From an uncultured bacterium (lineage in GTDB: Bacteria; Acidobacteriota; Thermoanaerobaculia; Multivoradales; JAHZIX01), in assembly GCA_965368975.1 (NCBI GenBank), contig CBDUPA010000022.1, forward strand, positions 32,001 to 96,000: 64,000 nucleotides of DNA, given 5' to 3'. The position numbers and the translations under genes were made by a program. The notes beneath the pieces were generated by a model. That model ran no database searches, was not told where the DNA came from, and was given only the letters and a program-made list of their open reading frames with translations. Each line of letters starts with the position of its first letter. Within the stretch, counting starts at the first letter, position 1. Shown in pieces: positions 44,224 through 63,094 of this stretch.

Positions 44224-44242
44224 GACCGAGGAGATTCTGGTG

Positions 44243-45157: not shown

Positions 45158-45238
45158 GCAGGCTTAAAGAAGGCTGCGATGACAGTACATATCCGTGGTT
45201 AGAGTTTCTGAGAGACTGGATGTTGGAAGGGAGAGATT

Positions 45239-45871: not shown

Positions 45872-45892
45872 GGGGTTCAGCGGAGCTATCCC

Positions 45893-46423
45893 TCACCCGC
45901 CCCGACGCTTGAACGACCAGGTAAACACAAACCGCGACACCTCCGTCCCATCCGCCATCCGCCCGACGGACACCGCCGAGGCCTTCGCCTTCTCCCCAGT
46001 CCGTAAAGTTTCCTGAATCGCCGCTGCCAGCTTCGGTCCGTCTTCACAGGTGAACGTGACCGTCGACGTACCCTTCTTGCCGAACGTCGCCTCGACGTTG
46101 ACGATCAGCATGCCCACCTTCTGCGGTGCGGCATCGACCAGGATTCCGGCGATGGCTCCCGTCGACAGCTCGGCGGCCATGGCCTGGACGGCGAAGTACA
46201 TGGACTGGAACGGGTTCTTGGTCCGCCAGCCGTAGGGGACGGTCGCTTCGCAGCGGTTTTCGTCCAGGGTGCGCACGCGCAGGCCGGCGAAGAGGGCGGC
46301 GGGGAGTTTGGTCAGGAAGAAGAGGCGGATCAGGACGGGACTGAGCAGGCCCTTGCGGGTCTTGGCGGCTTTGGGGTGCTGGAGGGTCTTGCTGGGATCG
46401 AACGTGATGGGGGCTTCGGACAT
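45893..46423 (-). CDS. DUF4442 / hotdog-fold thioesterase-like protein
   Basis: KLPAALFAG, WRTKNPFQSMYFA, AAELSTG. Confidence 0.75.
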   Translation of the reverse strand: MSEAPITFDPSKTLQHPKAAKTRKGLLSPVLIRLFFLTKLPAALFAGLRVRTLDENRCEATVPYGWRTKNPFQSMYFAVQAMAAELSTGAIAGILVDAAPQKVGMLIVNVEATFGKKGTSTVTFTCEDGPKLAAAIQETLRTGEKAKASAVSVGRMADGTEVSRFVFTWSFKRRGG

Positions 46424-47167: not shown

Positions 47168-47434
47168 GGTGGAGCGTTCGTCAGGAGGGCGTAAACAGTC
47201 AACTGCGCATTTCTCACTCTACCATACGGTGTGGACTTGTCCGCGGTTGCGAACTGCTTGAGACCTGCGACGCAAGGGTGCTTCCGTGGTGCCTTCGTGC
47301 GTGCTATGGTGCGCTGCCGGGCTACATCGTCCCGCCTCCGCTCTCGCCCGACTCAACCTTCCTGAAGACTCGACCAGCCCTCGCCCGACGACGTGATGGC
47401 TGACCCTGCCCAATGCACTCCGGAGACTGTACTC

Positions 47435-49255
47435 ATGGCTCTCGAAAGGCGCGAAGACCTTCGCAATCTCGCCATCATCGCCCACGTCGATCACGGCAAA
47501 ACGACGCTGGTGGACGCCCTGCTGTGGCAGAGCGGTATTTTTCGCGACAACCAGGAGGTGGCCGAGCGAGTGATGGACTCGATCGACCTGGAGCGCGAGC
47601 GCGGCATCACGATCATGGCCAAGAATACGTCCATCCGTTACCGCGACAGCCTGATCAACATCGTCGATACTCCGGGGCACGCCGACTTCGGCGGCGAGGT
47701 GGAGCGGACGCTGAAGCTGGTCGACGGCGTGCTGCTGCTTGTCGACTCCAGTGAAGGGCCGCTGCCGCAGACTCGCTTCGTGCTGCGCAAAGCGCTGGAG
47801 CTCGGGCTGCCGCCGATCGTCGTGGTCAACAAGATCGACCGGCCCGACGCGCGTCCGGCGGAGGTGCTGGACGAGGTCTACGACTTGTTCATCGACCTCG
47901 ACGCGCACGAGGACCAGCTCGACTTCCCTGTGCTCTTCACCAATGCTCGTGAGGGCAAGTGCCGGCTGACGGCGGACGGCGAGGAGACGACGCTGGAGCC
48001 GTTGATGGAGGAAATCCTGCGCACCGTGCCGGCGCCGACCTACGATCCGGAGATACCACTGCAAATGCTGGTGACGACGCTCGACTACGACGACTATGTC
48101 GGCCGCCTGGCGGTGGGACGCGTGGTCAGCGGCAACCTCAAGCGCGGCCAGGAGGTAGCGCGCTGCCGTCTGGACGGCGAGGTGGAGCGGGTGAAGGTGA
48201 CTGGCCTGTTTGGCCACCAGGGACTCAAGCGCGTGGCGGTGGAGACGGCGGGCCCCGGCGATATCGTGGCAGTGACCGGACTCGATGACATCTTTATTGG
48301 CGAGACGCTGGCCGACCTCGACGATCCGCGGCCGCTGCCGGTGATCCGGGTCGACGAACCGACCATCGCCGTCCACATCGGCATCAATGACTCGCCGCTG
48401 TCCGGCCGGGACGGCCAGCACGTGACGTCGCGCAAGCTGCGCGAGCGGCTGATCAAGGAAACGCTGGGCAACGTCGCGATCAAGGTCGAAGACACCGATT
48501 CGCCAGACACCTTCAAGGTCTCCGGCCGCGGCGAGCTGCAGCTGGCGATCCTGATCGAGATGATGCGGCGCGAAGGTTTCGAGATGAGCGTCGGCAAGCC
48601 GGAGATCCTGACTCGGCGCATCGACGGCAAGCTCCACGAGCCGATGGAATTGCTGGTGGTCGACTGCCCGGAGGAGTTTATCGGCGCGGTGACCCAGAAA
48701 CTGGGCACGCGCCGCGGTCGCATGACCAAGATGAGCAACCATGGCTCGGGGCGCGTGCGCATCGAGTTTCGGCTGCCGTCGCGCGGCCTGATCGGCTTCC
48801 GCAACGAGTTCCTCACCGACACCAGGGGCACCGGCCTGATGCACCAGCTGTTCGACGGCTTCGACCCGTGGCAGGGTGACATCGTACGCCGGGCCTCGGG
48901 GGCCCTGATCTCCGACCGTGCCGGCAAGGTGACGGCCTACGCGGTGGAGAACTTGCAGCCGCGAGGTGTTCTCTTCGCCGGACCCGGCACCGAAGTGTAT
49001 GAGGGCATGATCGTCGGCGAACACAACCGTCCGAGCGACCTCGACGTCAATATCACCAAAGAGAAGCGACTGACCAACATGCGTGCCTCGAGCGCAGACG
49101 AGTTGGTGCGCTTGACGCCGCCGACGGTACTCAGCCTGGAGCAGGCGCTGGAGCTGATCGAGGACGACGAGTTGGTCGAGGTGACGCCGACCTCTTTCCG
49201 GCTGCGCAAGCGCACGCTGCGTGCCGCGTTCCGTAAGAGCAAGAGCAAGGGCTGA
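47435..49255 (+). CDS. typA: Translational GTPase TypA/BipA
   Basis: [55 protein letters not shown]. Confidence 0.97.
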
Positions 49256-49456
49256 GCGGCGAACCGCAGGCAAGTGTCCCGGTAGAGAGCTGTTGGCGCA
49301 CAAACTTGGTGAGGTGGTAAGAAGCGCTGGTATGCCTCGCCAGCGTACAGTACAATCGACAACGGCCTGCCCTCTCGGCAAGCTTTTTGTTGTTGGGTTC
49401 CGCCGAACCCCGTCATTTGCAGCACCCGTGTGCTAGGGAAGAGGAGTACCAGACCG

Positions 49457-50917
49457 TTGGCCATCCGTAGACTCAAGCGTGCCGTTAAATCGCCGATCCA
49501 GCCGGTTCCTCGCGAGCAACCGCTGCCGGCTAGCTTCTATCAAGAGTTCGCCTACATTCTGCAGGGTGATCCGGTCAGCAATGTGCTGAACATGCCGCAG
49601 GGGGCGATTCTCGGGGGGCAGGTCAATCTGCGGGCGCTGGAAGGCACCTTCGCGGAGATGATCCGGCGCCACGAGTCCCTGCGCTGCCACTTCGAGCCGC
49701 AGGAGAGCGGGCCGTTGCTACAGAAGCTGGAGGACCGCGGCAGCTACTACCTGCCGGTGATCGACATCAGCGCCCTGCCGCAGGAAGTGCGCGAACAGGA
49801 GCGCCAGCGCCTGAGCGCGGCCTTCGCCGGTTTCCCGATGAACCTGCACACCGGGCCGCTGTTCATCACCACTGCCATCCTGCTCGGTCAGGACGCGGCA
49901 GCTCCGGGGGGCAGTCCTGGTCCCAACAAGGTGCTGGTGCTGATGAACTTGCACCACGCGTTCGGCGACGGATGGTCGATGACCGTGCTCAACCAGGAGC
50001 TGGTGACCATCTATCGCGCGCTGTCCAAGGGCCGGCCGTCGCCGCTGGCACCGCCGCGTTTGCAATTCGCCGACTACGCGGCCTGGCTGCGCCGGCGCAT
50101 GGACGAAGGCAAGCTGGACCCGCACCGCAAGTTCTGGCACGAGAACCTGAGTGGCGAGCGCGAATGGCCGCGCTTGCCCTACGACCGCCCGCGGACCGAC
50201 GACATCGGTGCCCAGGTGCACAGCACGTCGCTGCAGTTCGATCCCGACACGGCGAACGACATCCGCACCTTCAGTCGCAAGCTCGGCTGCACGGTGCCGA
50301 TCACGTTGCTGTCCGGTGTGCATGCCTTGCTCAACGGCTACAGCGGCCAGGAGGACGTCATCGTCGCCTGGGTGACGGCGGCGCGCAACCGTCCCGAGCT
50401 GGCCGGCATGATTGGCCTGTTCATGAACACCGTGGCGGTACGCGCCGACATCGGCGGCGACCCCACGTTCGAAGATCTGGCGGTGCGTGTGCGCAAGGCG
50501 TCGCTGGCCGCTTACGACCACCAAGAGATGCCCTACGTCACGCTGCTCCAGGAGTTGTTCCCGGACCGCAAGCTGGCGCGTACGCTGCTGACTCCGGTGG
50601 TCTTCAACATGCTGTCGTTCGCACCGCCGCCAGGTTCGGTCGGTGCGGGCACGCCGATGGACCTGGACGTCACCATGGAGATGGTGGGTTTGGGTGCCCA
50701 GGAGCAGGCGAAGTTCGACCTCACCTTCACCTGCATGGAATCGCCCTCGGTCATTGCGCTCAGTCTGTCCACCGCCGCCGCTCTCTTCGACAAAGAGACC
50801 GCGGAGGCGATTCGCGACGACTACCAGGATCTGATGAACCGGGCCATCGCCAATCCGGCCTTGCCGATGAGTGAGTTGACCAGCGGACTGCGCCTGCGCA
50901 GCCCGTCGAAGCAGTAA
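49457..50917 (+). CDS. Stand-alone NRPS condensation domain
   Basis: PLPASFYQE (C1), RRHESLR (C2), intact HHAFGDGWS (C3), QFADYAAW, LPYDRPR, IGLFMNT, AKFDL. No A or PCP domain. TTG start after GAGGAG (alternative GTG at 49430). Confidence 0.9.
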   Translation: MAIRRLKRAVKSPIQPVPREQPLPASFYQEFAYILQGDPVSNVLNMPQGAILGGQVNLRALEGTFAEMIRRHESLRCHFEPQESGPLLQKLEDRGSYYLPVIDISALPQEVREQERQRLSAAFAGFPMNLHTGPLFITTAILLGQDAAAPGGSPGPNKVLVLMNLHHAFGDGWSMTVLNQELVTIYRALSKGRPSPLAPPRLQFADYAAWLRRRMDEGKLDPHRKFWHENLSGEREWPRLPYDRPRTDDIGAQVHSTSLQFDPDTANDIRTFSRKLGCTVPITLLSGVHALLNGYSGQEDVIVAWVTAARNRPELAGMIGLFMNTVAVRADIGGDPTFEDLAVRVRKASLAAYDHQEMPYVTLLQELFPDRKLARTLLTPVVFNMLSFAPPPGSVGAGTPMDLDVTMEMVGLGAQEQAKFDLTFTCMESPSVIALSLSTAAALFDKETAEAIRDDYQDLMNRAIANPALPMSELTSGLRLRSPSKQ

Positions 50918-50978
50918 CCACATTCATGGTGGAATCCCCGCGGATTCCGCTGTCGATACGTTCGCGAGGGGAAGACCC

Positions 50979-52199
50979 ATGACTGAATTGCACCGCTTCC
51001 GCAACAGTGCCAAGGGCATGAAGTTGCTTGGCCCTTCCTTCGAGGAAGCAACCCGCAACGGCCTGATGGACATCGTTGCCCGCGACCTGGGCAACGATCA
51101 CATGCTGTCGGACGATGGCCTCGATTTCATCAATCTGTCGTGCTGCAACTATCTCGGCCTGCACAATCACCCGAAGGTGCTGGAATCCACCATCAAGGCC
51201 GTGCAGGAGTCGAACACTCTGACGCTCGGCTTTTCCCGCATGCGCATCCGTCTGAGCCACCTCGACCGCGCCGAGCGCGAAATGTCGGAGGTCTTCGGCT
51301 GCAACTGCCTGCTGGTGCAGTCGGCCAGTGTTGCGGCGCTGGCGGTGCTGCCGATGATGGCGGCCGGCGTGATCGGCACCGGCGAGCCGCCGGTGATGGT
51401 CTACGACAAGCACAGCCACTTCTGCATGAACCTCACCAAGCCGGTGTGCGCTGACGAGACCGAGGTGCTGACCTGCCCGCACAACGACTTCGACTTCCTC
51501 GAGGACGTGTGCAAGAAGCACAAGAACGTGGTCTATGTCGGTGACGGCGTCTATAGCATGGGCGGTCGGACCGTGCTCGAGAAGCTCAAGGAGCTGCAAG
51601 ACAAGTACGGCCTGTGGCTGTATCTGGACGATTCGCATGCCTTGTCGCTGTACGGCGAGAACGGCGAAGGCTTCGTGCGCGCTCACCTGAAGGAAGAGGA
51701 CGAACGTACGGTGATCGTCGGCTCGCTGGCCAAGGGCTTCGGCGCTTCCGGCGGCGTGGTGATGATCCACAAGAAGTGGGTGCCCAAGTTGATGACGCCG
51801 TTCGGTGGTCCGAGCGTCTGGTCGACGCAGCTGAATGTGCCGAGTTGCGGTGCCGTTCTGGGCTCGCTCGAGGTGCACCGTTCTCCGGAGCTGCAGGAGC
51901 TGCAGGGCAAGTTGCAGGCCAACCTCAAGACCTTCGACGACCATATCGAGACCCCGGGCAAGGGCACGCCGTTCCCAGTGCGCGTGATCCAGATTGGTGA
52001 CGGCGAGCGGGCGGCCGAGCTGTCCGGTGAGTTGCTGCGCCGCGGCTTCTACACGTCGGCCGTGTTCTTCCCGATCGTTGCCCGTGGCAAGGCCGGTCTG
52101 CGTGCCATGCTGCGCGCCAACAACAAGACTGAGGACATCATCCGCTTCGTCGAAACCGTCAAGGACGTGGTCGGCGACGAGATCGTCAGCGCCGCCTGA
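50979..52199 (+). CDS. PLP-dependent alpha-oxoamine synthase (AONS/KBL family, KtmB-like), copy 1
   Basis: NYLGL, HSHFCM, DGVYSMGG, LDDSH, SLAKGFG (PLP lysine), FFPIVARG. Confidence 0.85.
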   Translation: MTELHRFRNSAKGMKLLGPSFEEATRNGLMDIVARDLGNDHMLSDDGLDFINLSCCNYLGLHNHPKVLESTIKAVQESNTLTLGFSRMRIRLSHLDRAEREMSEVFGCNCLLVQSASVAALAVLPMMAAGVIGTGEPPVMVYDKHSHFCMNLTKPVCADETEVLTCPHNDFDFLEDVCKKHKNVVYVGDGVYSMGGRTVLEKLKELQDKYGLWLYLDDSHALSLYGENGEGFVRAHLKEEDERTVIVGSLAKGFGASGGVVMIHKKWVPKLMTPFGGPSVWSTQLNVPSCGAVLGSLEVHRSPELQELQGKLQANLKTFDDHIETPGKGTPFPVRVIQIGDGERAAELSGELLRRGFYTSAVFFPIVARGKAGLRAMLRANNKTEDIIRFVETVKDVVGDEIVSAA

Positions 52200-52246
52200 G
52201 CGCGCGCTGACGGCGGTCCACCAGAACCGCGATTCGCCAGCAGCTC

Positions 52247-52300
52247 GAGGGCCGCGGCGCCGTGAACTGAACCTCTCGCGCCCGGCCCCTTTTCGTTTTC
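52247..52300 (+). terminator. Possible terminator between oxoamine synthase 1 and the aldolase
   Basis: Imperfect stem GGGCCGCGGCGC...GCGCCCGGCCC followed by CTTTTCGTTTT; large loop. Confidence 0.35.
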
Positions 52301-52367
52301 ACTTTCCCTTGTTTGTCAATCCCCTCCTGGAGGAGGGTTCTGCAGAAGGGTCCCGAGGAGACCTGCC

Positions 52368-53249
52368 ATGTTGTTGTACCGCGACATCCTTCTGACGTCC
52401 GCACAGACGCCTGAGCGTTTCGTCAAGGCCAAGGAGGTCAAACCCGACCTCTGCCTGGTCAACTGCGAAGACCCGATTCCCCAATTCGAAGAGGACAAGG
52501 CGCGCGCCCGCAAGGTGTCGCTCGAGTGGCTCCAGCAAGAACACGAGGAGCCACCGTACGGCATCATGATCAACTGCCTGCGCACGCGCTTTGGCTTCCA
52601 GGACGTGCTGGCGTTGCAAGAGAGCGGCGCCAGACCCGAATACATCCTGATGGCCAAGGTGGAAGATCCGGAGGAGATCCGCATCGTCCACGAGATGTTG
52701 TCGCCGGTGATCCAGCCGCTGCGCCTGGGCATGATCGTCGAGTCGCTGCGCGGTGTCTGGGCACTGCACGAGATCGTGCACGCGGCCCCCAGCGTTGCTG
52801 GGCTGGTCCTCGGTGCGGCCGACTACGCCAACAACCTTGGCGTCGACGTCAATCCGGAGAGCCTGGCTCCCATCCGAGCCCGCATGGGTATGGCGGCGGC
52901 CAGCGCCGGCATTGCCTGCTGGGATGCGCCCTACTTCCACTACCAGGATCTCGACGGTCTGCGAGAGGAGTGTCGGCGCGCCCGGGCCTTCGGTTTCACC
53001 GGCAAGACGACGATCCACCCGAGCCACTGCAAGATCATCGAAGAAGAGTTCAAGCCCTCGTCGCGCGCCATCGACTTCGCCAAGCGAGTCGTGGCCGCGT
53101 GCGAAGAGCGCCGCGGTGGCATCGCGGTGGTCGACGGTCAGATGGTCGGCCGCCCCTTCGTCGCCAATGCTCGACGGGTGCTGGCGGCGGCCGGCGAGCC
53201 GATCCCCCCTACTCAGCAGGGAGATACCCCGCAGGGAGAGACAGCATGA
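52368..53249 (+). CDS. CitE/HpcH-family acyl-CoA aldolase/lyase (KtmA/RipC-like)
   Basis: PERF, CED, AKVE, IVES, GAADY, GFTGKTTIHPS, VDGQMV. Confidence 0.85.
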   Translation: MLLYRDILLTSAQTPERFVKAKEVKPDLCLVNCEDPIPQFEEDKARARKVSLEWLQQEHEEPPYGIMINCLRTRFGFQDVLALQESGARPEYILMAKVEDPEEIRIVHEMLSPVIQPLRLGMIVESLRGVWALHEIVHAAPSVAGLVLGAADYANNLGVDVNPESLAPIRARMGMAAASAGIACWDAPYFHYQDLDGLREECRRARAFGFTGKTTIHPSHCKIIEEEFKPSSRAIDFAKRVVAACEERRGGIAVVDGQMVGRPFVANARRVLAAAGEPIPPTQQGDTPQGETA

Positions 53250-53776
53250 AGAACCCCGTCGCCGCTCACAAGCAGGTGGGCGACAAGCGCTACCGCGAGG
53301 TGTCCGGCCTCTACTTCGACGACTTCGAGGTCGGCGACGTGTTCGAACATCGTCCCGGGCGTACCGTCACCAATACCGACAACATCTGGGGCTCGCTGCT
53401 GGCGATGAACCCGCACCCGCTGCACATCGACGCGGCCTACTGTGAGCACACCGAGTTCGGCGAGCTGCTGGTGTCCAGCCTGGTCACGTTCTCGATCGTC
53501 AATGCCATGACTGTCACCAGCACCAGCTTCAAGGCGATCGCCAACCTGGGCTGGGACAAGGTACGCTTGACCGGGCCGGTCTTCGCGGGTGACACGTTGT
53601 ACGCCGAGTCCGAAGTGCTGAGCAAGCGCGAGTCCAAATCGCGTCCCGGCCAGGGCATTGTCACCGTGCGCACGCGTGGCCTGAAGCAGGACGGCAGCGA
53701 GATCATGCACTTCGAGCGCACGTTCCTGGTGCCAGTGCGCGGCAGTGAGACCGTCGAGTCCAAGGCTGGTTATTGA
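53246..53776 (+). CDS. MaoC-family acyl-CoA dehydratase (KtmC/RipB-like)
   Basis: GLYFDDFEVGDVFEHRPGRT..TDN, NPHPLH, ANLGW, PVFAGDTL, KRESKSRP. True start is the ATG at 53246 (ATGA overlap), not 52526. Confidence 0.88.
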   Translation: MKNPVAAHKQVGDKRYREVSGLYFDDFEVGDVFEHRPGRTVTNTDNIWGSLLAMNPHPLHIDAAYCEHTEFGELLVSSLVTFSIVNAMTVTSTSFKAIANLGWDKVRLTGPVFAGDTLYAESEVLSKRESKSRPGQGIVTVRTRGLKQDGSEIMHFERTFLVPVRGSETVESKAGY

Positions 53777-53787
53777 TGGGGGAGTTG

Positions 53788-54783
53788 ATGCGAGCGATCG
53801 AAGTCACCGAACCCGGGGGGCCGGAGGTTCTGCAGATCCAGGATGTGCCGATGCCGGAGCCCGGCCCCGGCCAGCTGCGCGTACGTATTCGAGCGGCAGC
53901 GCTCAACTACGCTGACACCTTGCAGCGCAAGGGGCTGCTCAGTGCGCCGGGCGACAACCAGCGCCTGGGGATCGAGCTGGCCGGCACCATCGACGCCATC
54001 GGGGACGGTGCCACGGACGTCGACGGCGGCGCCTGGAAGGTGGGGGAGCGGGTGTTCGCCATCATCACCGCCGGTGCCTATGCCGAATACGCGCTGACAG
54101 AGGCGGCGCTGACCCAGCGCATGCCCGAGAACTGGGACTATCCCGAGGCCGCCGCGGCACCGGAAGCCTTCTACGTGGCCAACGAGACGCTCTTTCACGT
54201 CGGTGGCCTGCAGCGCGGTGACAGCGCGCTGATCCATGCCGGCAGCAGTGGCATGGGAACCGGCTTGCTGCAGCTGGCGCACGTCAAAGGCATCACCGTG
54301 CTGACCACCTCGGGCAGCCCGGAAAAGCGTGCCCGCCTCGAGGAGCTCGGTGCCGACCTGGTTATCGACTACAAGAACCAGGACTACCTGGAAGCTGTCC
54401 GGGAGTTCACCGACGGTGCCGGCGTCGACCTGGTGCTCGACATGGTCGGCCAGCGCTACCTGGGCAAGAACCTGCAGGCGCTCAAGCCCGATGGTCGGTT
54501 GATCCAGATCGGTCTGCTCGAGGGCTACGATCCGGGCGAGCTGGATCTGCTGCTGCTGGTCATGAACCGTCTGATCGTCCGCGGCTGGGCCATGCGTGGC
54601 CAGTCCAACGACGACAAGCGTCAGATCGTGCGTCGTTTCCGTGACCAGGTATTGCCGCGTTTTGCTGCCGGCGAGATCCGGCCGGTGGTCGACTCCACCT
54701 TCCCGCTCGAAGACGCCGCGGGTGCGCACCGCCACCTGGAGTCGCACCGGCACTTCGGCAAGATCGTGCTGACTGTCGACTGA
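53788..54783 (+). CDS. NAD(P)H MDR enone/quinone oxidoreductase (PIG3/QOR-like; KtmF-like role inferred)
   Basis: PGGPEVL, LNYAD, GAYAEY, HAGSSGMG, HFGKIVL; no catalytic Zn cysteines. Confidence 0.88.
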   Translation: MRAIEVTEPGGPEVLQIQDVPMPEPGPGQLRVRIRAAALNYADTLQRKGLLSAPGDNQRLGIELAGTIDAIGDGATDVDGGAWKVGERVFAIITAGAYAEYALTEAALTQRMPENWDYPEAAAAPEAFYVANETLFHVGGLQRGDSALIHAGSSGMGTGLLQLAHVKGITVLTTSGSPEKRARLEELGADLVIDYKNQDYLEAVREFTDGAGVDLVLDMVGQRYLGKNLQALKPDGRLIQIGLLEGYDPGELDLLLLVMNRLIVRGWAMRGQSNDDKRQIVRRFRDQVLPRFAAGEIRPVVDSTFPLEDAAGAHRHLESHRHFGKIVLTVD

Positions 54784-54842
54784 CCCGGAACTCGGAGTTT
54801 GCATCTCGTCAATTCCGATTCGTGATGGAGTGAGGCCGGACC

Positions 54843-56078
54843 ATGAGTGGCTTGCATCGTTTTCGCAATAGTGCCAAGGCTATGGCGCTGACCGCGCCGT
54901 CGTTTCAGCAGGTCCGTGACCACGGTCTCGTCGGCCTGAGCGTCGAGAACCTCGGTGGTGACCTTCTGCGCGGCGCCGACGGCACCGAGTTCACCAGCTT
55001 CTCGTTCTACTCCTACCTCGGGTTGGAGAACCACCCGAAGGTCATCGAGGGTGCTATCGACGCTTTGCGTCGCGTCGGTATGTTCCGCATGCCGATGTCA
55101 CGCATGCGCGCCAACTTCGACCTCGTTGAGCAGATCGAGGCTGACCTCTCCGAGCTGTGGCGCTGTAACCTGGTACTCACCTCGTCGGCCAGCAACGCCG
55201 CGCTCGGGGTCCTGCCGCTGATGGCCGCCGGCCTGATTGGTGAGGGCGAAGCGCCCGTGATGGTGTTCGACGGGCACAGCCACTTCTGCATGAACCTGGC
55301 CAAGCCCGTGTGCGCCGACGAGACCGAGGTGCTCACCTGCCCGCACAACGACTTCGATTTTCTGGAAGACGTGTGCAAGAAGCACGAGCACGTCGCCTAC
55401 GTCGGGGACGGCGTCTACAGCATGGGCGGTGCCTCGGCGCTCGATGAATTGCTGCGCTTGCAGGACAAGTACGGTCTCTACCTCTACTTCGACGACACCC
55501 ACTCCGTGTCCCTCTACGGTGAGTTCGGCGAAGGCTTCGTGCGTGCCCGCACCGAGGACCTGCACGAGCGCACCATCATCGCTGCGTCCCTCGGCAAGGG
55601 TTTCGGTGCCTCGGGTGGGGCCATTCTGATGCACCAGCGTCACGCCCAGGCCCTCTTGACACCTTATGGCGGCCCGGTGGTCTGGTCGCAGAGCCTCAAT
55701 GTTCCGTCATTGGGCGCCATCGTTGGTTCGATCGAGGTCCACCGCACGCCCGAGCTAGCTGAGTTGCAGCAGAAGCTGCGTCGCAACATCGAACTCTTCG
55801 ATCGTCAGATCGGCACACCGCAACAGGGCGGTCCGTTCCCGGTGCGCGTCATTCGTATCGGTGCCGCCGAGGAAGCCGCCGAGATCTCCGGTGAATTGCT
55901 GCGTCGTGGCTTCTACTGCTCCGCCGTCTTCTTCCCGATCGTCGCTCGCGGCCAGGCAGGCCTCCGCGCCATGCTGCGCGCCAACCAGAGCGAAGAGCAG
56001 ATCGTCCGCTTCTGCGACACGGTCAAGGACGTGGTGGGAGAAGAGCGGTTGCAGGAGCTGAGCACGCCGTCTGCCTGA
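54843..56078 (+). CDS. PLP-dependent alpha-oxoamine synthase (KtmB-like), copy 2
   Basis: Paralogue of 50979-52199: LHRFRNSAK, SYLGL, HSHFCM, FDDTH, SLGKGFG. Confidence 0.85.
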   Translation: MSGLHRFRNSAKAMALTAPSFQQVRDHGLVGLSVENLGGDLLRGADGTEFTSFSFYSYLGLENHPKVIEGAIDALRRVGMFRMPMSRMRANFDLVEQIEADLSELWRCNLVLTSSASNAALGVLPLMAAGLIGEGEAPVMVFDGHSHFCMNLAKPVCADETEVLTCPHNDFDFLEDVCKKHEHVAYVGDGVYSMGGASALDELLRLQDKYGLYLYFDDTHSVSLYGEFGEGFVRARTEDLHERTIIAASLGKGFGASGGAILMHQRHAQALLTPYGGPVVWSQSLNVPSLGAIVGSIEVHRTPELAELQQKLRRNIELFDRQIGTPQQGGPFPVRVIRIGAAEEAAEISGELLRRGFYCSAVFFPIVARGQAGLRAMLRANQSEEQIVRFCDTVKDVVGEERLQELSTPSA

Positions 56079-56206
56079 TCTCCTGCTTGGCCCCCTTTTT
56101 TGCCACTTAGCGCGTCTTCATATAGAGAGACATCGAGTCGGAGCCGTCGTGCCGCAAGTACTTCAAGCGCACGCTCTCCCGCTCGGGCGAAAGGAGGTGA
56201 GCGCGA

Positions 56207-56296
56207 ATGAACACGGTTTTGGCGTTGCAGGATCTGAGTGATGGTCGCGATGACACGCAGCAGCTGTCGTCGCTGATCAGCCTGAATTGTTGCTGA
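56207..56296 (+). CDS. lanA: Class III lanthipeptide precursor, 29 aa: MNTVLALQDLSDGRDDTQQLSSLISLNCC
   Basis: Below the ORF-track size cut-off. Perfect SD AAGGAGGTGA (56191-56200); leader VLALQ (LxLQ motif); core S-x2-S-x2/3-C; directly upstream of LanKC. Confidence 0.88.
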   Translation: MNTVLALQDLSDGRDDTQQLSSLISLNCC

Positions 56297-56328
56297 GCTC
56301 AGCACCGGCTTGATCTTACGCAAAGACA

Positions 56329-56376
56329 GCTTCGGGCGCTTCGCGTCCGCGTCGCGCCCGGAGCAGTATTCTTTCT
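56329..56376 (+). terminator. Stem-loop between precursor and lanKC (attenuator or stabiliser)
   Basis: GCTTCGGGCGC...GCGCCCGGAGC followed by AGTATTCTTTCT. Confidence 0.5.
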
Positions 56377-56426
56377 CGATAGCACAACAGCCCGCTGGCG
56401 CTGGGCACTGACCTTTTGGATGCACC

Positions 56427-59132
56427 ATGGCACTCGCGATAGAGCGGCGACTGAAGCGCGGCATGTTCGCCTTCACAGTCGTCGATCGAAGATACTTTGA
56501 AGATCTCGCACGTTATCAACCGGCCGATCGCACGTTTCAAGACCTGATCGAGGCTCATCTGCCGCCAGCTTGGAGCTGCCGGCGGGAGGAGATCTGGCTC
56601 AAGGTGGTTCCGCCGGAGCGGCCGCTGCCGGCACAGGGGTTCAAGATTCACCTCTCGGCCACCTCGCGTTCCAGCCGAGACACTCTGGGGCGGGTACTGC
56701 CCCTGCTGCTGGAAGGCGAACTGGCTTTCAAAGTCGTGGCCGACGATTTTCTGCTCGACTTCTTGAATTCCAAGAACGGCTCTCGATCCTCCTCCGGCAA
56801 GTTCATCACCATTTACTTGCCCGAGGCGGAGATCGGACTGGACTTGTTGCCTCGACTGGAGCAGGAGGTTGGCGAGGCGGCGGCGCCGTACATCTTGACC
56901 GACCGGCGCTACGGGGACAGTCGGGCGGTCTTCTATCGCTACGGCGGCATCCGACCGCACTTCCGGCTCAATCTCTTCGGTGAGAAGGAGCCACTGCTGC
57001 GCCTACCGGACGGCAGCCAGGTCCTCGACGAGCGGGCCCCTGTGTTCAGCTGTCCACCGGGCATCGAGGATCCGTTTCAGCCGCCGCAGGTCACGAGATC
57101 GGAAGCCGCGGACGACACCGATCTGCTGCGGGGACGCTACCGGGTGCTCGAGGCACTGCAGTTCGCGAACTCCGGGGGAGTCTACGCCGGGATCGACGTT
57201 ACGACGGGGCAGAAGGTCGTGATCAAAGAGGCGCGGCCCTACGTCAGCGTGCGTCGCGGCTCGGATCTGGACGCCGTGGCGATCCTGGACAAGGAAGCGC
57301 GGGTTCTGGAGCGCTTGCAACCACTGTTGTGCGTGCCTCGCTTGCTCGATCGCTTTGAACATTGGGAGCACTCCTTCCTGGTCGAGGAGTACATCGAGGG
57401 CCGAACCCTGTCCTCGTACCGAGCCCTCGACGATGTCGGCCTGCTGGTGCAGCCGCGCCTGACAGCTCAGCGGGTCGCAAGCTTCTGTCGCCGCTTCGCG
57501 CGGCTCGGTCTCAATCTGTTGCGGGCTGTGCGCGCGTGTCACGATCTCGGTGTGCTCCTGGGGGATCTTTCGCCATCGAACGTGCTGGTCGACCTGGAAA
57601 CCCTGGATGTGACGCTGATCGATTTCGAAGGCGCCTTCCTGGACGGCGACCACCGTGGCCAGGAGATGGCGGCGGTGACCGGCGGGTTCGTGTCGCCGCG
57701 CCGGATTCAGGGGCAGGCACCGGTGCCCGAGGACGACTACTACTCGCTCGGGTCCGTCCTCTACAGTCTGATCCTGCCGATCCAGGCCTTCTTCCCCTTG
57801 CAGCCGGAGGCGCAGCGGACGATGTACCAGGCGATCGAGCACGATCTCGACCTCCCGGCGGAGGTCGGGGCGGGGCTCTTCGCGCTGCTGGACGGTGAGC
57901 CGGAGCGGGCGCGTGATCACCTGGAAGCGCTCCTGCGACTGCCGCCGCGGCCGACGGCCTGGTGCCCACGACCGCTGACGCCACCGGACGCGGCCCTGCA
58001 GCAGCAAGCCGAGTGCACCCTGCAAGCGATCGTCCGCGACCTGCAGGCGTGCGCCGACTTCGAGCGCGACGATCGCCTGTGGCCGGCGGACTACCGCGTC
58101 TTCACCACCAATCCGCTCAACCTGGCGTACGGTGCTACCGGTATCGCCCTGTTCCAGCATGCCGTCACTGGCCGGCTCGACGAACGCGTCAGGGGCTGGT
58201 TGTTGCAGCACCTACCGTCGTCCAGGACCTGCCCGCCGGGCTTGTTCGTGGGCATGGCGGGCATTGCCTGTGGCTTGACCGAGCTCGGACTGCCAGACGC
58301 AGCCCGTGATGTCCTGGAGGGGGCCTGGCAGTCGCCGTTGCGCGACGAAGGTTTCGACCTCTTCTATGGTCTCGCGGGCTTGGGGCTGGCGCATCTGTAC
58401 TTCTGGCACACCTATCGGGAACCGCGCTTCCTGGCTCGCGCTCGGTACGCGGCGCAGCGGCTCGAGCAGGCCGCGGTCCAGGCGGACATCGGTTGTTACT
58501 GGACCAACGTCGATGGTCACCAGTACTACGGCTATGCCCACGGTGGCAGTGGTGTCGCGCTCTTCCTGCTGCGCTTGCACGAAGCGACCGGCGACGTGAT
58601 GCCGCTCGCGCTCGGCCGTCGGGCGCTGGAGCACGAGATGTCGGCGGCGGTGCGGCGTGAGGGGCAGGCAGGCTGGTGGCGCGCGCCGGACCACCCTCTG
58701 CTGTCTCCGTACTGGCGCTACGGGGCCGCGGGAGTCGGTAGCGTGTTGATCCGCTACTACCAAGCCTTGGGCGACGAGCGCACCTTGCGTCTGGCCGAGG
58801 AGGCCGCCGTCTATGCCGCCTCCCGCTACTCGGTCTACCCAGGCCAGCTCTTGGGCCTCGCCGGCATGGGCGAGTTCCTACTCGACTTGTTTCTCGCCAC
58901 CGGCGATTCACGCTATCACCACCAGGCCTGGGACCTGGTGCGAAGTGTGCTGCACTTTCGGGTCGAGACTCCTCATGGCATCTCGTTTCCGGGTGAGGAG
59001 TTGATCCGCTTGAGCACGGACTTCGCCACAGGTAGCGCCGGTATCGGCATGTTCTTGGAGCGTTGTTTACGGCCACGGCATCGCTTTCTCCTGGACTTGC
59101 CAGCACACAGAAAGGTACCTGGCGATGCTTGA
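56427..59132 (+). CDS. lanKC: Class III lanthipeptide synthetase (lyase-kinase-cyclase)
   Basis: Lyase QGFKIHLSA, SGKFITIY, FYRYGG; kinase NSGGVY, IKEARP, GDLSPSN, IDFE; LanC-like YAHGGSG, YWRYGAAG, STDFATGSAG with no visible Zn-ligand cysteines. Confidence 0.93.
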   Translation: MALAIERRLKRGMFAFTVVDRRYFEDLARYQPADRTFQDLIEAHLPPAWSCRREEIWLKVVPPERPLPAQGFKIHLSATSRSSRDTLGRVLPLLLEGELAFKVVADDFLLDFLNSKNGSRSSSGKFITIYLPEAEIGLDLLPRLEQEVGEAAAPYILTDRRYGDSRAVFYRYGGIRPHFRLNLFGEKEPLLRLPDGSQVLDERAPVFSCPPGIEDPFQPPQVTRSEAADDTDLLRGRYRVLEALQFANSGGVYAGIDVTTGQKVVIKEARPYVSVRRGSDLDAVAILDKEARVLERLQPLLCVPRLLDRFEHWEHSFLVEEYIEGRTLSSYRALDDVGLLVQPRLTAQRVASFCRRFARLGLNLLRAVRACHDLGVLLGDLSPSNVLVDLETLDVTLIDFEGAFLDGDHRGQEMAAVTGGFVSPRRIQGQAPVPEDDYYSLGSVLYSLILPIQAFFPLQPEAQRTMYQAIEHDLDLPAEVGAGLFALLDGEPERARDHLEALLRLPPRPTAWCPRPLTPPDAALQQQAECTLQAIVRDLQACADFERDDRLWPADYRVFTTNPLNLAYGATGIALFQHAVTGRLDERVRGWLLQHLPSSRTCPPGLFVGMAGIACGLTELGLPDAARDVLEGAWQSPLRDEGFDLFYGLAGLGLAHLYFWHTYREPRFLARARYAAQRLEQAAVQADIGCYWTNVDGHQYYGYAHGGSGVALFLLRLHEATGDVMPLALGRRALEHEMSAAVRREGQAGWWRAPDHPLLSPYWRYGAAGVGSVLIRYYQALGDERTLRLAEEAAVYAASRYSVYPGQLLGLAGMGEFLLDLFLATGDSRYHHQAWDLVRSVLHFRVETPHGISFPGEELIRLSTDFATGSAGIGMFLERCLRPRHRFLLDLPAHRKVPGDA

Positions 59133-61566
59133 GCAAGGCTTGCGCACCGGACTACGTCTGATGACTCGGCAGCGAGGTTTCGCCACTGCCTTGATCCTCA
59201 CACTGGCACTGGGCGTCGGTGGGGTCACGGCTTTCTTCGCCGTGCTCTACGGCGCCGCGCTGCGGCCGTTGCCGTACCCTCGGTCCGGCGAGCTCGTCTT
59301 GTTCCAGTGGCAAGGGCCTGGAGGGGGGGCTTCCTATGCCACCAGCGAGGGGCGCTTCCGCGCCTGGCAGGCGCAGCCGTCGCCGTTCGCCGCGCTGGCC
59401 GCGCACCAGCTCAAGAGCGCGGGGCAGACCGTTGGAGATCCAGGAGGGGAGCCACGCTATGTCCAGACGCTGAAGGTCTCGACGAGCTTCTTCGAGACCT
59501 TGGCAGTGGCACCTTTCTTGGGCCGGGTGTTCTTGCCGAACGATGGCTATGCCGGGGCGTCCTGCTCGGTCGTGGTGGCTCATGACTTTTGGCGCCATGA
59601 TCTCGCTGAACAATGGCCTGCCGAGGTGCGGGTGGGTGGCGAGCACTGCCAAGTGGTCGGCGTCATGCCCACGGACTTCCGCTTTGCTCCCGCGGCGCAG
59701 CTTTGGGTACCGCAGCGTGCGGGGGGTAGGAGCGAGAGCGGGGCCAACCTCTATGCCGTTCTGGGACGGCTGGCCGAGGGGTTCGACCGACGCCAGGCAG
59801 AAAATGCAGTCAATGCGATGGGGAGAGCCGTTGCGGCCAGCGAGCCGCGGGTGGCCGAGACGGAGCGAATCCGTCTGCTCAGTCTCGAGGAGCGCTTGCG
59901 CGGTGCAGGGCGCGCTCGTCTGTGGCCGTTGGCCCTCGCTGGAGGGCTGGTGCTGTTCGTTTGCCTGCTCAATCTGTCGCATCTCTTGGTGGCGTACGTC
60001 GGGTGCCGCCAGCAGTCCCTCAGCCTGCGGCGGGTGCTCGGAGCTCCTTGGACGCGCATCGGGACCGGGATTCTCGCCGAACTGACGCTGCCGACGCTGA
60101 CCGGGATCGGGCTCGGGCTGGTCCTCGCATCCGCGGTCCTGGCGTGGGTCTCGAAGACGGGCGCTCTGGCACTCTCAGCGGTCGCGGTGGTGTCGTTGGG
60201 GTGGGTCGAATTTGCCTTCGCTGCCTGGATCACGGTTCTGTGCATGGGCTTGGTGGTCACGGTCTTGGTTGTGCGCATGGCTCGACGCGAGAGCTCCTCC
60301 GCCTTGCGTCCAGAAGCCGCGCACCGCTCCTGTACTCGCATCGTCGGGCGGCCGCTGGCTCGCAGACTGGTGGCTATCCAGGTCGCGTGCTCGTTGGCCG
60401 TTCTCTTCACGACTTTCTTGTTCTATGGCAACCTGCAGCGTCTCGGCCGAGTCGATCTGGGGTTCGATACGGCAGGTGTCTGGACCTTTCAGGCTCCACG
60501 AGAGGCGGTGGCGTCGACGGCCGGCAACCAACGCTTCACCGAGGCGGTGATCGAGCGCTTGCAGCTCCTGCCGGGAGTCACGGCGGTGGCCACGACGACC
60601 AGTCTGCCGACAGAACTCGGGCTCAACATTCCCGCGGAAGTCGAGAGCGGGCAGGTGCTCGACGCGGCTTCCGTCGAGTTACGGGCCGTGAGTCCGGACT
60701 ACTTCCGAGCCTTGAGTATTCGCATCGAGCAGGGCCGTGGACTGGATCCCCTCGACCAGGCAGGGACATCGCCGGTCGCCGTGGTCAACGAAGCCTTCCA
60801 GCGGCGCTTCTGGGGCCGGGGGCCGGAGAGGGACGCGCCCAGTGCTGTCGGTCAGCGTCTGCGGTTGGCGCGAGGTCTGGGGCCTCTCAGCGACGCGCCG
60901 CGGGAGGTCGTGGGCATCGCGGCGGACGTCCGTACCGCTGGCCCGGCCGTGCCAGTGCCGGCGATTGTCTATGTGCCTCGGCCGCAGCTGCCAGAGGCCC
61001 TCCAGGAGCTGATCGATCAGGCTTTCCCAGTCTCGTTTGTGGTCCGTCTCGAGAACGAGCGCACCCTCGATCCTCGCCGCGTGCGGGCCCTGGTCCGCGA
61101 CGTGGAACCCTGGCAGGCGCTCACCGCCCATCGCGGTATGGCTGAGGTGGTGCAGGGAGCCCTGAGCGGGCACCGGCTCCATGCCCTGCTAGCAGTCTTG
61201 TTCGGCTTTTTGGGACTGTCGCTGTCGTCGCTGGGCATCTTCGGGGTCACCCATGCTGACGTGGTCCTGCGCACCCGGGAGTTCGGAGTACGTAAGGCCA
61301 TTGGGGCCTGTGAGAACAGTGTGCTCCGCCTCGTTCTGGGTACAGTCCTCGGACGGACGCTGGCCGCCATTGTGGTCGGACTACCTCTGTGCGGCGCCGT
61401 CTTCCGTGGACTCGGAAGCCTGGTCGTCTTCGACGATGACTGGCTCGCTGCGCTTGGCGGCGCAGCCTTGTGCGTTCTCGCCGTCGCCGTTCTGGCGGCT
61501 GTGGTCCCCGCGTGGCGTGCTGCGCGTCTGGACCCTCTGTGCGCTCTGCGCTCCGAGGAGAGCTGA
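59125..61566 (+). CDS. Duplicated MacB/FtsX ABC permease (ADOP-like)
   Basis: LTLALGVG...RPLPYP, GRVF, VVGVMP, VDLGFD, REFGVRKAIGA, PAWRAARLDP..ALR; overlaps the lanKC stop. Confidence 0.85.
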   Translation: MLEQGLRTGLRLMTRQRGFATALILTLALGVGGVTAFFAVLYGAALRPLPYPRSGELVLFQWQGPGGGASYATSEGRFRAWQAQPSPFAALAAHQLKSAGQTVGDPGGEPRYVQTLKVSTSFFETLAVAPFLGRVFLPNDGYAGASCSVVVAHDFWRHDLAEQWPAEVRVGGEHCQVVGVMPTDFRFAPAAQLWVPQRAGGRSESGANLYAVLGRLAEGFDRRQAENAVNAMGRAVAASEPRVAETERIRLLSLEERLRGAGRARLWPLALAGGLVLFVCLLNLSHLLVAYVGCRQQSLSLRRVLGAPWTRIGTGILAELTLPTLTGIGLGLVLASAVLAWVSKTGALALSAVAVVSLGWVEFAFAAWITVLCMGLVVTVLVVRMARRESSSALRPEAAHRSCTRIVGRPLARRLVAIQVACSLAVLFTTFLFYGNLQRLGRVDLGFDTAGVWTFQAPREAVASTAGNQRFTEAVIERLQLLPGVTAVATTTSLPTELGLNIPAEVESGQVLDAASVELRAVSPDYFRALSIRIEQGRGLDPLDQAGTSPVAVVNEAFQRRFWGRGPERDAPSAVGQRLRLARGLGPLSDAPREVVGIAADVRTAGPAVPVPAIVYVPRPQLPEALQELIDQAFPVSFVVRLENERTLDPRRVRALVRDVEPWQALTAHRGMAEVVQGALSGHRLHALLAVLFGFLGLSLSSLGIFGVTHADVVLRTREFGVRKAIGACENSVLRLVLGTVLGRTLAAIVVGLPLCGAVFRGLGSLVVFDDDWLAALGGAALCVLAVAVLAAVVPAWRAARLDPLCALRSEES

Positions 61567-61579: not shown

Positions 61580-63094
61580 TTACGACCCCGAGCGCGGGGG
61601 CGGTGGCGGCAGCTTCGGTGGCGGTGGTAGGTCGTCTGCTTCGCTCGCCGCTGGCGGTGGCGGAAGCTCTGGCGCCGCCGGGGCGGCTGGTGGAGGCGCC
61701 ATCGGAGGGGGAGGTGGTGGCGCCGGTGCCGCTGGGATCGGTGCCGCAGGAGGTGGTGCCGCAGGAGGCGGTGCCGCAGGAGGCGGTGCAACTGGAGGCG
61801 GTGCAACTGGCCGTGCCGCTGGCGGTGCAACCGGCGGCGGACCCAGGCGGGCTGGACTCGGGCGGGGCCCAGCCGGACGGCGGCGGGTGAGTAGGACGAT
61901 GACGACGATCAACAGCACCAGGGCTACAACGCCACCGATCAGGAGTCCTTGCTTGCCGCCGAGCTTGGCCAGCAGGCCGGTGTCGGCCGCGGAGTCCGCG
62001 CCGGGGGGTTGGCCGGTGCCGTTGTCGGGCGTCCTCTCTCCGGCTGGGTCTCCACCCGCTTGAGGTGTCGCCGGATCGAGCGCCTCCGCCTCGGAGCCGG
62101 CTGGGTCGGTGGTGCCGTCGGTAGTCGTGCCGTCTTCGCTCCCCGTCACGCTTCCATCTGGATCAGGGACGCGGCGGATCGTGTCCGGCATCACGCGGAT
62201 GGTCGGCGGTTCTGCCGGGGGGATTGTCGGTGGGGGTGGTGAGCTGCGCGGAGCTCGACGGTTCGGGGGAGGTGGGCTCGCGGGTGGCACAGTGACCGGC
62301 GGCGGTGACGGCTGAGATTCCGAGCGGTTCGGTCGACGCGCGGGTGGTTGGGCAGTCCCGGACCCGGACGAAGACGTCGTTCCCTGCCGGCGATCACGGC
62401 TGGCCGTGGCGGCGAAGGCTTCGAGGTCGGGCGCGGCTTCTTCCAGGATGCGGTCGAGCAGTTCCCGGTGGCGCTTGCGGCGGAAGGCCGAGAAGACGCT
62501 GTCGGAATCGAGAGGGTTGTCGAGGGCCTCGCTGCGGCTCTCGTCGCGGTCGTCACGGTTCCAGGTCCGTTCGTAGCGGCGACGGAAGATGTAGTCAGCG
62601 CTGGCGGTCTCGATAACCAGGATCTCCAGGGTCATGCGCTGCTCCCGCCGCTGGTGACGGTAGCCGCGCACGATGCCGGTGAGCACGTAGGGCACGCCCA
62701 GCCGCTGGCCCAGGCGTGCGCCCAGGCTGGGATCGACGGCCACGCGCTCGGCCGGGATGCCCAGTTCCGCCAACGCGCTGCGGACCGCGGTCCGACTCGC
62801 TGGCACCATGCTGTCGAGCTGCGACAAGGTGCTGTGCAGCGCTGCCTCGCTGTGCTCTTCGAGGTCGGACAAGCTCTCCCCGGAAGCGTTGACGATCTCG
62901 ACGACCGCCACCTGGATCTGCGCCGCTGCCGGTGCTGCTGCTAGAAGCGCTGCCAGCAGCACAGCCAGCCCAGTCGAGACCAACAAAGCGAGCAGGCTGA
63001 GGGTCGAAGGATGCAGAGTGCCCCTCCGAGGCGTGAGGATCCGGGGTGTCCCCGGTGCTGGCGGTTCCGGTGGTGAAGGGGCCAGATGGAACAT
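61580..63094 (-). CDS. Single-pass protein: CsgG/TolB-N-like extracytoplasmic domain, Pro-rich linker, TM, Pro/Ala-rich tail
   Basis: Signal-like hydrophobic N-terminus; VAVVEI...ARLGQRLGVPYVLTGIV; TM LLIGGVVALVLLIVVIVLL; repeated APPPA. Confidence 0.6.
   Translation of the reverse strand: MFHLAPSPPEPPAPGTPRILTPRRGTLHPSTLSLLALLVSTGLAVLLAALLAAAPAAAQIQVAVVEIVNASGESLSDLEEHSEAALHSTLSQLDSMVPASRTAVRSALAELGIPAERVAVDPSLGARLGQRLGVPYVLTGIVRGYRHQRREQRMTLEILVIETASADYIFRRRYERTWNRDDRDESRSEALDNPLDSDSVFSAFRRKRHRELLDRILEEAAPDLEAFAATASRDRRQGTTSSSGSGTAQPPARRPNRSESQPSPPPVTVPPASPPPPNRRAPRSSPPPPTIPPAEPPTIRVMPDTIRRVPDPDGSVTGSEDGTTTDGTTDPAGSEAEALDPATPQAGGDPAGERTPDNGTGQPPGADSAADTGLLAKLGGKQGLLIGGVVALVLLIVVIVLLTRRRPAGPRPSPARLGPPPVAPPAARPVAPPPVAPPPAAPPPAAPPPAAPIPAAPAPPPPPPMAPPPAAPAAPELPPPPAASEADDLPPPPKLPPPPPRSGS

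Follow-up and report, generated by a model that had tools for sequence, protein, structure and literature searches.

A ketomethylene-type gene cassette with a lone condensation domain beside a class III lanthipeptide unit in an uncultured acidobacterium

Do the nine genes that directly follow typA in the genome of an uncultured acidobacterium of the order Multivoradales make one natural product or two? The genes lie within a stretch of 64,000 nucleotides (positions 32,001 to 96,000 of contig CBDUPA010000022.1, assembly GCA_965368975.1), which at its full length is called the window here, and the open reading frame (ORF) listing together with Pfam and NCBIfam scans places all nine on the + strand, directly 3' of typA. 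The first six encode a stand-alone condensation (C) domain of the nonribosomal peptide synthetase (NRPS) type and five enzymes resembling those of the ketomethylene pathway of the ketomemicins; the other three encode a class III lanthipeptide precursor, its synthetase LanKC and a permease. An earlier note on this DNA had put forward a single hybrid product as its headline and two co-located products as its fallback, and it is the fallback that comparison with relatives favours. The gene run probably holds two adjacent, chemically independent biosynthetic units, the first of them a variant of the ketomethylene pathway, and the favoured account of their juxtaposition, judged from sequence comparison, is a coincidence of neighbourhood. 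Most likely, the cassette with its C domain and twin alpha-oxoamine synthases (AONS) is a new variant of the ketomethylene pathway, and the lanthipeptide unit is an ordinary new class III cluster. We infer the independence of the two products, as we do the substrates, the order of the steps and the donor of the C domain described below.

The features of the locus, in map order, are these.

47393..49255, + strand: typA/bipA GTPase (Pfam GTP_EFTU, BipA_C, EFG_C), a housekeeping gene and the upstream edge of the locus
49430..50917, + strand: stand-alone NRPS C domain (PF00668, 229 bits, profile positions 4-445 of 456)
50979..52199, + strand: AONS1, an alpha-oxoamine synthase dependent on pyridoxal 5'-phosphate (PLP), a KtmB-like amino-acid C-acyltransferase (NF005697, PRK07505-type, 479 bits, cut-off 342)
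52368..53249, + strand: CitE/HpcH-family aldolase-lyase, KtmA-like (PF03328, 72.7 bits)
53246..53776, + strand: MaoC-type (R)-hydratase/dehydratase, KtmC-like (PF01575 and PF19315)
53773..54783, + strand: PIG3-type NAD(P)H oxidoreductase of the medium-chain dehydrogenase/reductase (MDR) family, KtmF-like (TIGR02824, 345 bits, cut-off 297; ADH_N, ADH_zinc_N)
54843..56078, + strand: AONS2, the second alpha-oxoamine synthase (NF005697, 504 bits, cut-off 342)
56207..56296, + strand: class III lanthipeptide precursor of 29 aa, MNTVLALQDLSDGRDDTQQLSSLISLNCC (NF038154, 25.4 bits, cut-off 22)
56329..56364, + strand: GC-rich hairpin with an 11-bp stem, then a U-rich stretch, a candidate attenuator (fold of 56290-56385)
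56427..59132, + strand: class III lanthionine synthetase LanKC with lyase, kinase and cyclase domains (NF038151, 722 bits, cut-off 575; RamC_N, Pkinase, LANC_like)
59125..61566, + strand: ADOP-type duplicated MacB/FtsX permease (MacB_PCD, FtsX; TIGR03434, 508 bits, below the cut-off of 622)
61580..63094, - strand: convergent gene for a proline-rich, membrane-anchored protein (ORF; no Pfam family), the downstream edge of the locus

The distances between successive genes of the run are 61, 168, -4, -4, 59, 128, 130 and -8 bp; the MaoC start overlaps the CitE stop and the MDR start the MaoC stop by 4 nt each, and the permease start overlaps the LanKC stop by 8 nt. The number, orientation and order of the genes are as the earlier note had given them, confirmed by ORFs, Pfam and NCBIfam alike, and the measured positive gaps of 59-168 bp match its internal gaps of 60-170 bp.

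The resemblance of the upstream genes to the ketomemicin pathway is the first point to settle. In the accessible parts of the Salinispora ketomemicin paper and of a 2026 review, ktmA-F are assigned functions as follows: KtmA is an aldolase, KtmB a PLP-dependent C-acyltransferase, KtmC a dehydratase, KtmD an ATP-grasp enzyme, KtmE an amidinotransferase and KtmF a dehydrogenase; ketomemicins are described there as NRPS-independent products from Actinomycetota, the described ketomethylene pathway being ATP-grasp based and confined to that group. The aldolase, C-acyltransferase, dehydratase and dehydrogenase families are all present in the window, whereas the nine genes of the run include neither an ATP-grasp nor an amidinotransferase gene by Pfam and NCBIfam, and the window differs further in its stand-alone C domain, its second AONS and its acidobacterial host. 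That the upstream aldolase, dehydratase, C-acyltransferase and dehydrogenase form a ketomemicin-type set, as the earlier note had supposed, is borne out by homology and by the order of a Streptomyces locus (L046), which reads aldolase, AONS, MaoC, PGM1-type ATP-grasp, a 387-aa protein and MDR; because this order matches the functions of ktmA-F, and because the genes are homologous, a Ktm-like reading of the window's CitE, MaoC, MDR and AONS genes is supported. Identity between L046 and the window is 45-46% for AONS (46% for AONS2), 31% for CitE, 60% for MaoC and 27% for MDR, and the L046 gene at the ktmF position has the same Pfam families as the window MDR. The chemistry, as Kawata et al. are said to have set it out in 2017, runs through aldol addition, dehydration and reduction to an alkylsuccinyl-coenzyme A (CoA), followed by a PLP-dependent Claisen condensation with an amino acid. 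A genome announcement of the L046 strain reports, in its accessible part, an antiSMASH match to ketomemicin, with the scaffold not stated there.

How widely this set travels, and in what company, was assessed with an alignment of four AONS sequences (alignment A1), used to scan a single genome of each species; this yielded 44 loci in which homologues were then located by tblastn with the window proteins; a preceding genome scan with AONS2 alone had found no relative. The loci come, by their record titles, from Acidobacteriota, Myxococcota, Mycobacterium, Streptomyces, Micromonosporaceae, Pseudomonadota and Brevibacillus, and in 29 of the 44 AONS is flanked on both sides by 8 kb or more. Beside AONS lie homologues of CitE in 37 loci, of MaoC in 38, of MDR in 25 and of the C domain in 10; CitE and MaoC are both linked to AONS in 36, and the complete set of AONS, CitE, MaoC and MDR is present in 23. 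The MaoC homologues in related loci are 49-71% identical to that of the window, and the window MDR is 45-49% identical to the MDR proteins of acidobacterial cassettes. An ATP-grasp gene lies beside the cassette in L046 and L023, adenylation (A) and thiolation (T) domains accompany it in L022, L019, L038 and a genome of the same order (G021), and a LanB-N-like protein adjoins it in nine loci. The cassette is read from these neighbourhoods as a conserved, portable module whose amide-forming partner (ATP-grasp, NRPS or LanB-N-like protein) differs by lineage.

Several arrangements of the cassette were seen in passing. A third form, found in L029, L032, L033 (= G426:C51), L036, L039, L041, L043, L045 and L047, has the order AONS, MDR, a protein of about 470 aa, MaoC, CitE, a 458-aa protein and a LanB-N-like protein (PF04738); the proteins of about 470 and of 458 aa match no Pfam family nor, where checked at G426, any NCBIfam family, an aldo-keto reductase is added in three of the loci, and the hosts are metagenome-assembled genomes (MAGs) of Thermoanaerobaculia and Pseudomonadota. 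The AONS genes of these loci form a single clade with a support of 99 in the Shimodaira-Hasegawa-like approximate likelihood ratio test (SH-aLRT). The coupling of an enzyme of the type found with peptides that are ribosomally synthesized and modified post-translationally (RiPPs), or of the peptide aminoacyl-tRNA ligase (PEARL) type, to ketomethylene chemistry in this third form looks more novel than the window locus itself. AONS, CitE and MaoC are grouped with no match to MDR in the Mycobacterium loci L023-L025, L031, L037, L048 and L060, several of them from non-tuberculous species, and likewise in the Actinomycetota MAGs L028, L030 and L059; in L023 an ATP-grasp_4 protein follows directly after MaoC. 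A DUF3326 protein stands directly 5' of the cassette AONS in L019 (2228-3547) and L021 (11977-14247), and no homologue of it was found in the window genome. In L018, from an uncultured Acidobacteriota MAG (897-20881), AONS is embedded among repeated NRPS modules and no gene for CitE, MaoC or MDR is closer than 10 kb, which suggests that an AONS of this family may serve NRPS lines without nearby genes for alkylsuccinyl-CoA.

The two AONS genes of the window are 62% identical to each other, and both reading frames are open. Their identity to the full-length AONS genes of the related loci is 44-52%, and in the 44-row tree the two are sisters (SH-aLRT 94) on a branch of their own; the pair is read as a lineage-specific duplication. 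Both copies keep the invariant Asp, His, Ser and Lys positions (alignment A1) that we take, by analogy to BioF, for the PLP site. Extra AONS copies also occur in L021.

To which half of the gene run does the lone C domain belong? The gene encodes 495 aa if read from the first GTG (49430) and 486 aa from 49457, and a protein of 486 aa that is 93% identical occurs in another assembly; this match favours the start at 49457, used in the earlier note and probably the true one, and suggests that the stand-alone form has persisted while the protein diverged by about 7%. The window's domain retains the catalytic HHxxxDG motif, as HHAFGDG. A tree of 46 rows, comprising the window's C domain, 20 from related loci and the 25 best own-genome paralogues (built by a quick method, with no bootstrap), places it in a seven-row clade with SH-aLRT 99, of which five members are acidobacterial C domains beside the cassette (L019, L021, L022, L027 and L018); none of the 25 paralogues falls inside. 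Its identity to the cassette-adjacent members of the clade is 37-40%, against at most 34% to the best own-genome paralogues. Among the NRPS-linked cassettes of Acidobacteriota and Myxococcota, L022 and G021 keep the window's arrangement of C domain, AONS, CitE, MaoC and MDR: in L022 an A-T-C protein is followed by AONS, CitE, MaoC and MDR, and in G021 the cassette lies directly 3' of a C-A-T-C-A-T-C synthetase. A C-C protein adjoins the cassette in L019, with a separate A-T protein, and in L021, where the sequence ends just beyond that gene and no A-T protein is seen. The C domains of the NRPS-linked cassettes share one clade with that of the window, whereas theirs end an A-T-C or C-A-T-C-A-T-C synthetase or form a C-C protein by an A-T protein, and the window's stands alone. 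By these affinities, the lone C domain is assigned to the cassette and not to the lanthipeptide half, and the proposal that it serves the lanthipeptide finds no counterpart, for it groups with the cassette C domains and with nothing linked to LanKC.

The genome itself, at 7.1 Mb, is very rich in NRPS genes: C-domain matches of more than 300 aa number at least 192 and are distributed over 26 contigs, with 30 on contig C19 alone; none of these matches lies near the locus.

The segment from 56.2 to 61.6 kb is, by its profile matches and motifs, a class III lanthipeptide unit, as the earlier note had said of the downstream genes. The precursor combines a VLALQ leader motif with a single S-x-x-S-x-x-C core motif and ends in Cys-Cys. 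LanKC reaches 568 bits with the class IV model, below that model's cut-off of 650, and the cyclase part (residues 600-901) has no CHG motif, which we take to be the zinc-ligand motif of class I, II and IV cyclases. The permease is presumed to be an exporter or an immunity protein. In relatives, for which up to about 9 kb was fetched on each side of LanKC, the 2 kb upstream of LanKC contain, in 23 of 28 loci, between one and four precursors that join an M..(I/V)L.LQ leader to a Ser/Cys-rich core, and a homologous FtsX-type permease adjoins LanKC in 17 of 29, an arrangement read as a self-contained unit of synthetase, precursor and permease. The class III clusters of the same order share with the window the leader, a Ser/Ser/Cys core, a three-domain LanKC and an FtsX-type permease; the window differs in having the shortest precursor among those examined (29 aa), with a single motif and a Cys-Cys end, and a LanKC at most 43% identical to any relative found. 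A metagenome scan with LanKC gave one locus, a 25%-identical match to the kinase domain only, too poor to be of use.

Four peptidases are encoded in the neighbourhood: an M1 aminopeptidase, an M4 thermolysin-like protease, a fused PmbA/TldD protein (1185 aa) and an S9 prolyl-oligopeptidase-family protein, at 15201-18026 (-) and 39815-42406 (+) of the window and at 3456-7013 (-) and 7698-10199 (-) of L154, the latter corresponding to C22:96.4-103.2 kb, beyond the window. Any of the four could remove the leader; as far as checked, none is linked to LanKC in relatives.

Whether the halves stand side by side elsewhere bears on the hybrid headline of the earlier note. LanKC is present in none of the 44 cassette loci and in none of 8 further cassette places, and matches to the C domain, AONS, CitE, MaoC or MDR occur in none of the 29 LanKC loci of relatives, so that the nine-gene juxtaposition is unique among the loci examined and the hybrid headline finds no support as far as adjacency goes. 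Within the window's order, cassette-type AONS was found in 12 of 300 genomes (E <= 1e-60) and LanKC in 28 of 300 (E <= 1e-50), with the limit that the LanKC survey scored three kinase-like candidates per genome at first look and may have missed some LanKC genes. Six genomes have both (the window genome G000, G021, G620, G647, G679 and G680), and the two lie on the same contig in G000 alone, the other five carrying them on separate contigs, which again speaks against the hybrid. The two genes are clearly unlinked in G021 and G647, where each lies over 150 kb away from any contig end. G620, G679 and G680 have short contigs, so that adjacency across a contig end is conceivable there, though the sequenced flanks show no partner. 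Cassette AONS was found in none of five genomes of the same family, in one of which (G002) a LanKC accompanied by an ABC ATPase and a permease lies at a site unrelated to typA.

The two units would, on this reading of independent pathways, work as follows. In unit 1 (49.4-56.1 kb), CitE, MaoC and MDR would convert a 2-oxo acid and a CoA ester into a 2-alkylsuccinyl-CoA, by analogy to KtmA, KtmC and KtmF, and AONS1 and AONS2 would each condense such a product decarboxylatively with an amino acid, yielding a pseudodipeptide of the amino-ketone (ketomethylene) kind. Substrate use probably differs between the two copies, which would take one or two different amino acids. The C domain would then N-acylate the free amine of the pseudodipeptide and so replace the ATP-grasp ligase KtmD, drawing on a thioester donor in trans that may be the carrier protein of one of the genome's NRPSs or an acyl-CoA, in a role parallel to that of the terminal NRPS C domain of the cassette relatives. 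Stand-alone C domains of the VibH type offer a possible parallel, in that they couple an acyl donor borne on a carrier to the amine of a free small molecule. In unit 2 (56.2-61.6 kb), LanKC would dehydrate Ser residues of the SSLISLNCC core and form a labionin or lanthionine ring, and the permease would export the lanthipeptide or confer immunity, with a leader protease presumably encoded elsewhere.

Part of a similar logic has been described for dynaplanin. There, in the accessible part of the source, the AONS-type enzyme DynZ makes an amino-ketone, and N-acylation by DynY, a GNAT-family enzyme, from an acyl carrier protein (acyl-ACP) or acyl-CoA is proposed. Condensation by an AONS followed by N-acylation of the amino-ketone is also what is proposed here for the window's AONS and C domain; the systems differ, again from that part of the source, in that a GNAT enzyme and not a C domain acylates, and in that phenylacetyl-CoA is used and not an alkylsuccinyl-CoA from an aldolase, a dehydratase and a reductase. 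Cassette forms linked to NRPSs or to RiPP enzymes were not found described in the searchable literature, outside which lie most subscription journals and supplements. Within that literature, nothing was found that joins ketomethylene with lanthipeptide or with condensation domain plus biosynthetic gene cluster; the ketomemicin papers listed, judged by titles and the starts of abstracts, yielded none on NRPS- or RiPP-linked forms, and nothing pertinent on class III lanthipeptides in Acidobacteria was found, judged by title.

Several observations weigh against two independent units. All nine genes are co-oriented, and transcription signals do little to divide them. A consensus scan of 47-64 kb, a crude method, gave 6 terminator-like sites where 8.9 were expected, every one within a gene and none in an intergenic gap of the locus; the same scan, which models only promoters of the sigma-70 type, found no promoter-like site. 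The AONS2-precursor gap of 128 bp shows no unusual fold (z = -0.24). Co-orientation, this gap without significant structure and the lack of a promoter-like site make co-transcription of both halves possible. The window's C domain is the only one of the cassette type seen without A-T domains, which leaves its donor unexplained: Pfam scans of called genes found no A or T domain in the window, whose remaining genes are unrelated housekeeping and regulatory ones, the nearest A-domain/NRPS genes on the contig lie 73 kb upstream (C22:43-8484), and of the genome's A-domain matches, at least 241 in number, none stands out as a trans A-T partner: the best hits to the A-T proteins that accompany the cassette in L019 and L022 are 38-44% identical and scattered over many contigs. 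The branch of the window's C domain is long (1.04, against 0.06-0.58 for the other clade members), as it could be after a change of function. Finally, the closest relatives are distant, with cassette AONS at about 50% and LanKC at 43% identity, and the absence of adjacency among them may be compatible with a recent, lineage-specific hybrid.

Of the earlier note's "possible terminators", none was found in the gaps by the consensus scan, and the AONS2-precursor gap has no unusual structure. A significant hairpin does follow the precursor. This hairpin, at 56329-56364 between precursor and LanKC, folds at -40 kcal/mol (z = -3.24, with 0 of 200 shuffles folding as well), and we infer that it is an attenuator setting the ratio of precursor to enzyme. 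The precursor gene is preceded by a strong ribosome-binding site of its own, AAGGAGGTG, read from the sequence. A candidate promoter read by eye, TTGCCA-N15-TATAGA at 56100-56126, fails the scan criteria and is not counted as evidence.

The missing A-T partner also invites the thought that unit 1 is an orphaned remnant, in which a rearrangement severed the cassette and a terminal C domain from their NRPS, leaving no finished product, or free pseudodipeptides only, and a lanthipeptide unit that alone is fully functional. This is unlikely, although the surroundings lend it something. The typA gene is 72-76% identical and syntenic, including the two genes upstream of it, in four genomes of the same family, and synteny stops at the 3' end of typA (49255), directly after which the breakpoint falls; the genes that follow typA in G001, G002 and G005 have their best matches in mid-contig at C10:96.5-109.2 kb of the window genome. 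That synteny ends there and that the downstream orthologues lie on C10 places the locus at a rearrangement breakpoint, and at such a breakpoint a recent fusion of two modules is conceivable, a point that speaks for a link between the halves. An attempt to delimit an inserted island by synteny failed, because the relatives' downstream genes map to C10 and the edges of the locus cannot be fixed in this way. The absence of A-T domains from the window, the 73 kb to the nearest NRPS genes and the long C-domain branch would likewise suit a remnant. Against decay stand the six upstream genes themselves, with intact frames and a third-position GC of 0.82-0.86, like that of other window genes, as well as the intact HHxxxDG motif, the invariant PLP-site positions of both AONS proteins, and the two AONS copies, which have diverged to 62% identity and are both still open. 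The lone C domain in another assembly, 93% identical and of the same length, argues the same way.

Quite unlikely, too, is the hybrid product of the earlier note. In such a hybrid the C domain could, for example, place an alkylsuccinyl or other CoA-bound acyl group on the N-terminal amine of the matured core, the ribosomal peptide taking the place of the NRPS partner. Stated as a history, a cassette would have lost its NRPS and been captured by a class III cluster, and the lone C domain would cap a labionin peptide with an acyl or pseudopeptide unit derived from the cassette; to this, too, we give a low probability. In its favour are the nine co-oriented genes with gaps of at most 168 bp and without a significant terminator in the AONS2-precursor gap, a C domain that uniquely lacks A-T domains and so needs some other partner, and a cassette that elsewhere has varied amide-forming partners, including the RiPP-type LanB-N-like protein in nine loci. 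Set against this are the failure of the halves to adjoin in relatives and their separate contigs in five other genomes of the order. The enzymes themselves add a difficulty. By established enzymology, an AONS requires a free alpha-amino acid and a C domain a thioester donor, so that a ribosomal peptide could only be an acceptor, which leaves the AONS genes without a role in such a hybrid.

Acylated class III peptides do exist, and the window can be compared with them. According to the accessible parts of the sources, the lipolanthines (microvionin, nocavionin and the goadvionins) are N-terminally acylated class III peptides, the flavin-dependent Cys decarboxylase MicD forms avionin and, by the title of a reference, a dedicated acyltransferase links the polyketide and peptide parts of goadvionins. 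The window shares with them a class III synthetase and a short core. It differs in lacking the hallmarks: there is no LanD-type decarboxylase (flavoprotein) in the locus, the only PF02441 match of the genome lying at C3:223386-223898; no polyketide synthase (PKS), fatty acid synthase (FAS) or GNAT is among the nine genes, and the relatives of the C domain never adjoin LanKC. The single-motif precursor, taken in the earlier note as a sign of an acylated hybrid, loses that meaning, since short single-motif precursors ending in CC(T/G) also occur in L065 and L130, stand-alone LanKC loci without the cassette, and the feature therefore does not point to acylation.

That CitE and MaoC are instead catabolic enzymes of itaconate or citramalyl-CoA degradation (RipC/RipB-like), unrelated to any natural product, is very improbable and was rejected: their best NCBIfam models are indeed RipC (219 bits, CitE) and RipB/Ich (249 bits, MaoC), but these scores fall below the cut-offs of 375 and 340, no CoA-transferase gene is among the nine, and the two genes are linked to AONS in 36 of the 44 loci, including the ktm-like Streptomyces locus and several NRPS loci.

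The interest of the locus lies first in its chemistry. Pseudopeptides with a ketomethylene link imitate the substrates of proteases and are resistant to hydrolysis. One and the same cassette of four enzymes is distributed over at least five phyla and coupled to ATP-grasp ligases, NRPS C domains and LanB-N-like proteins, and the form with a C domain and twin AONS, compact at about 6.6 kb (49430-56078), could show what an NRPS-type C domain does with a free amino-ketone. The adjacent lanthipeptide is a small class III member, easy to test, from a phylum that has been little studied. At present the hybrid idea is unsupported; if true, the capture of a cassette by a class III cluster would be of high interest, being the first case of a lanthipeptide hybrid in which an NRPS C domain makes the join.

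One further segment of the window, upstream of typA, stands out by composition. Positions 44000-45900 have a low GC content (0.52-0.53, against about 0.65 in the neighbouring DNA) and encode a restriction endonuclease of the Mrr type (44162-45157) as well as a DUF4145 protein (45239-45871); by content and composition, this is probably a small acquired defence islet.

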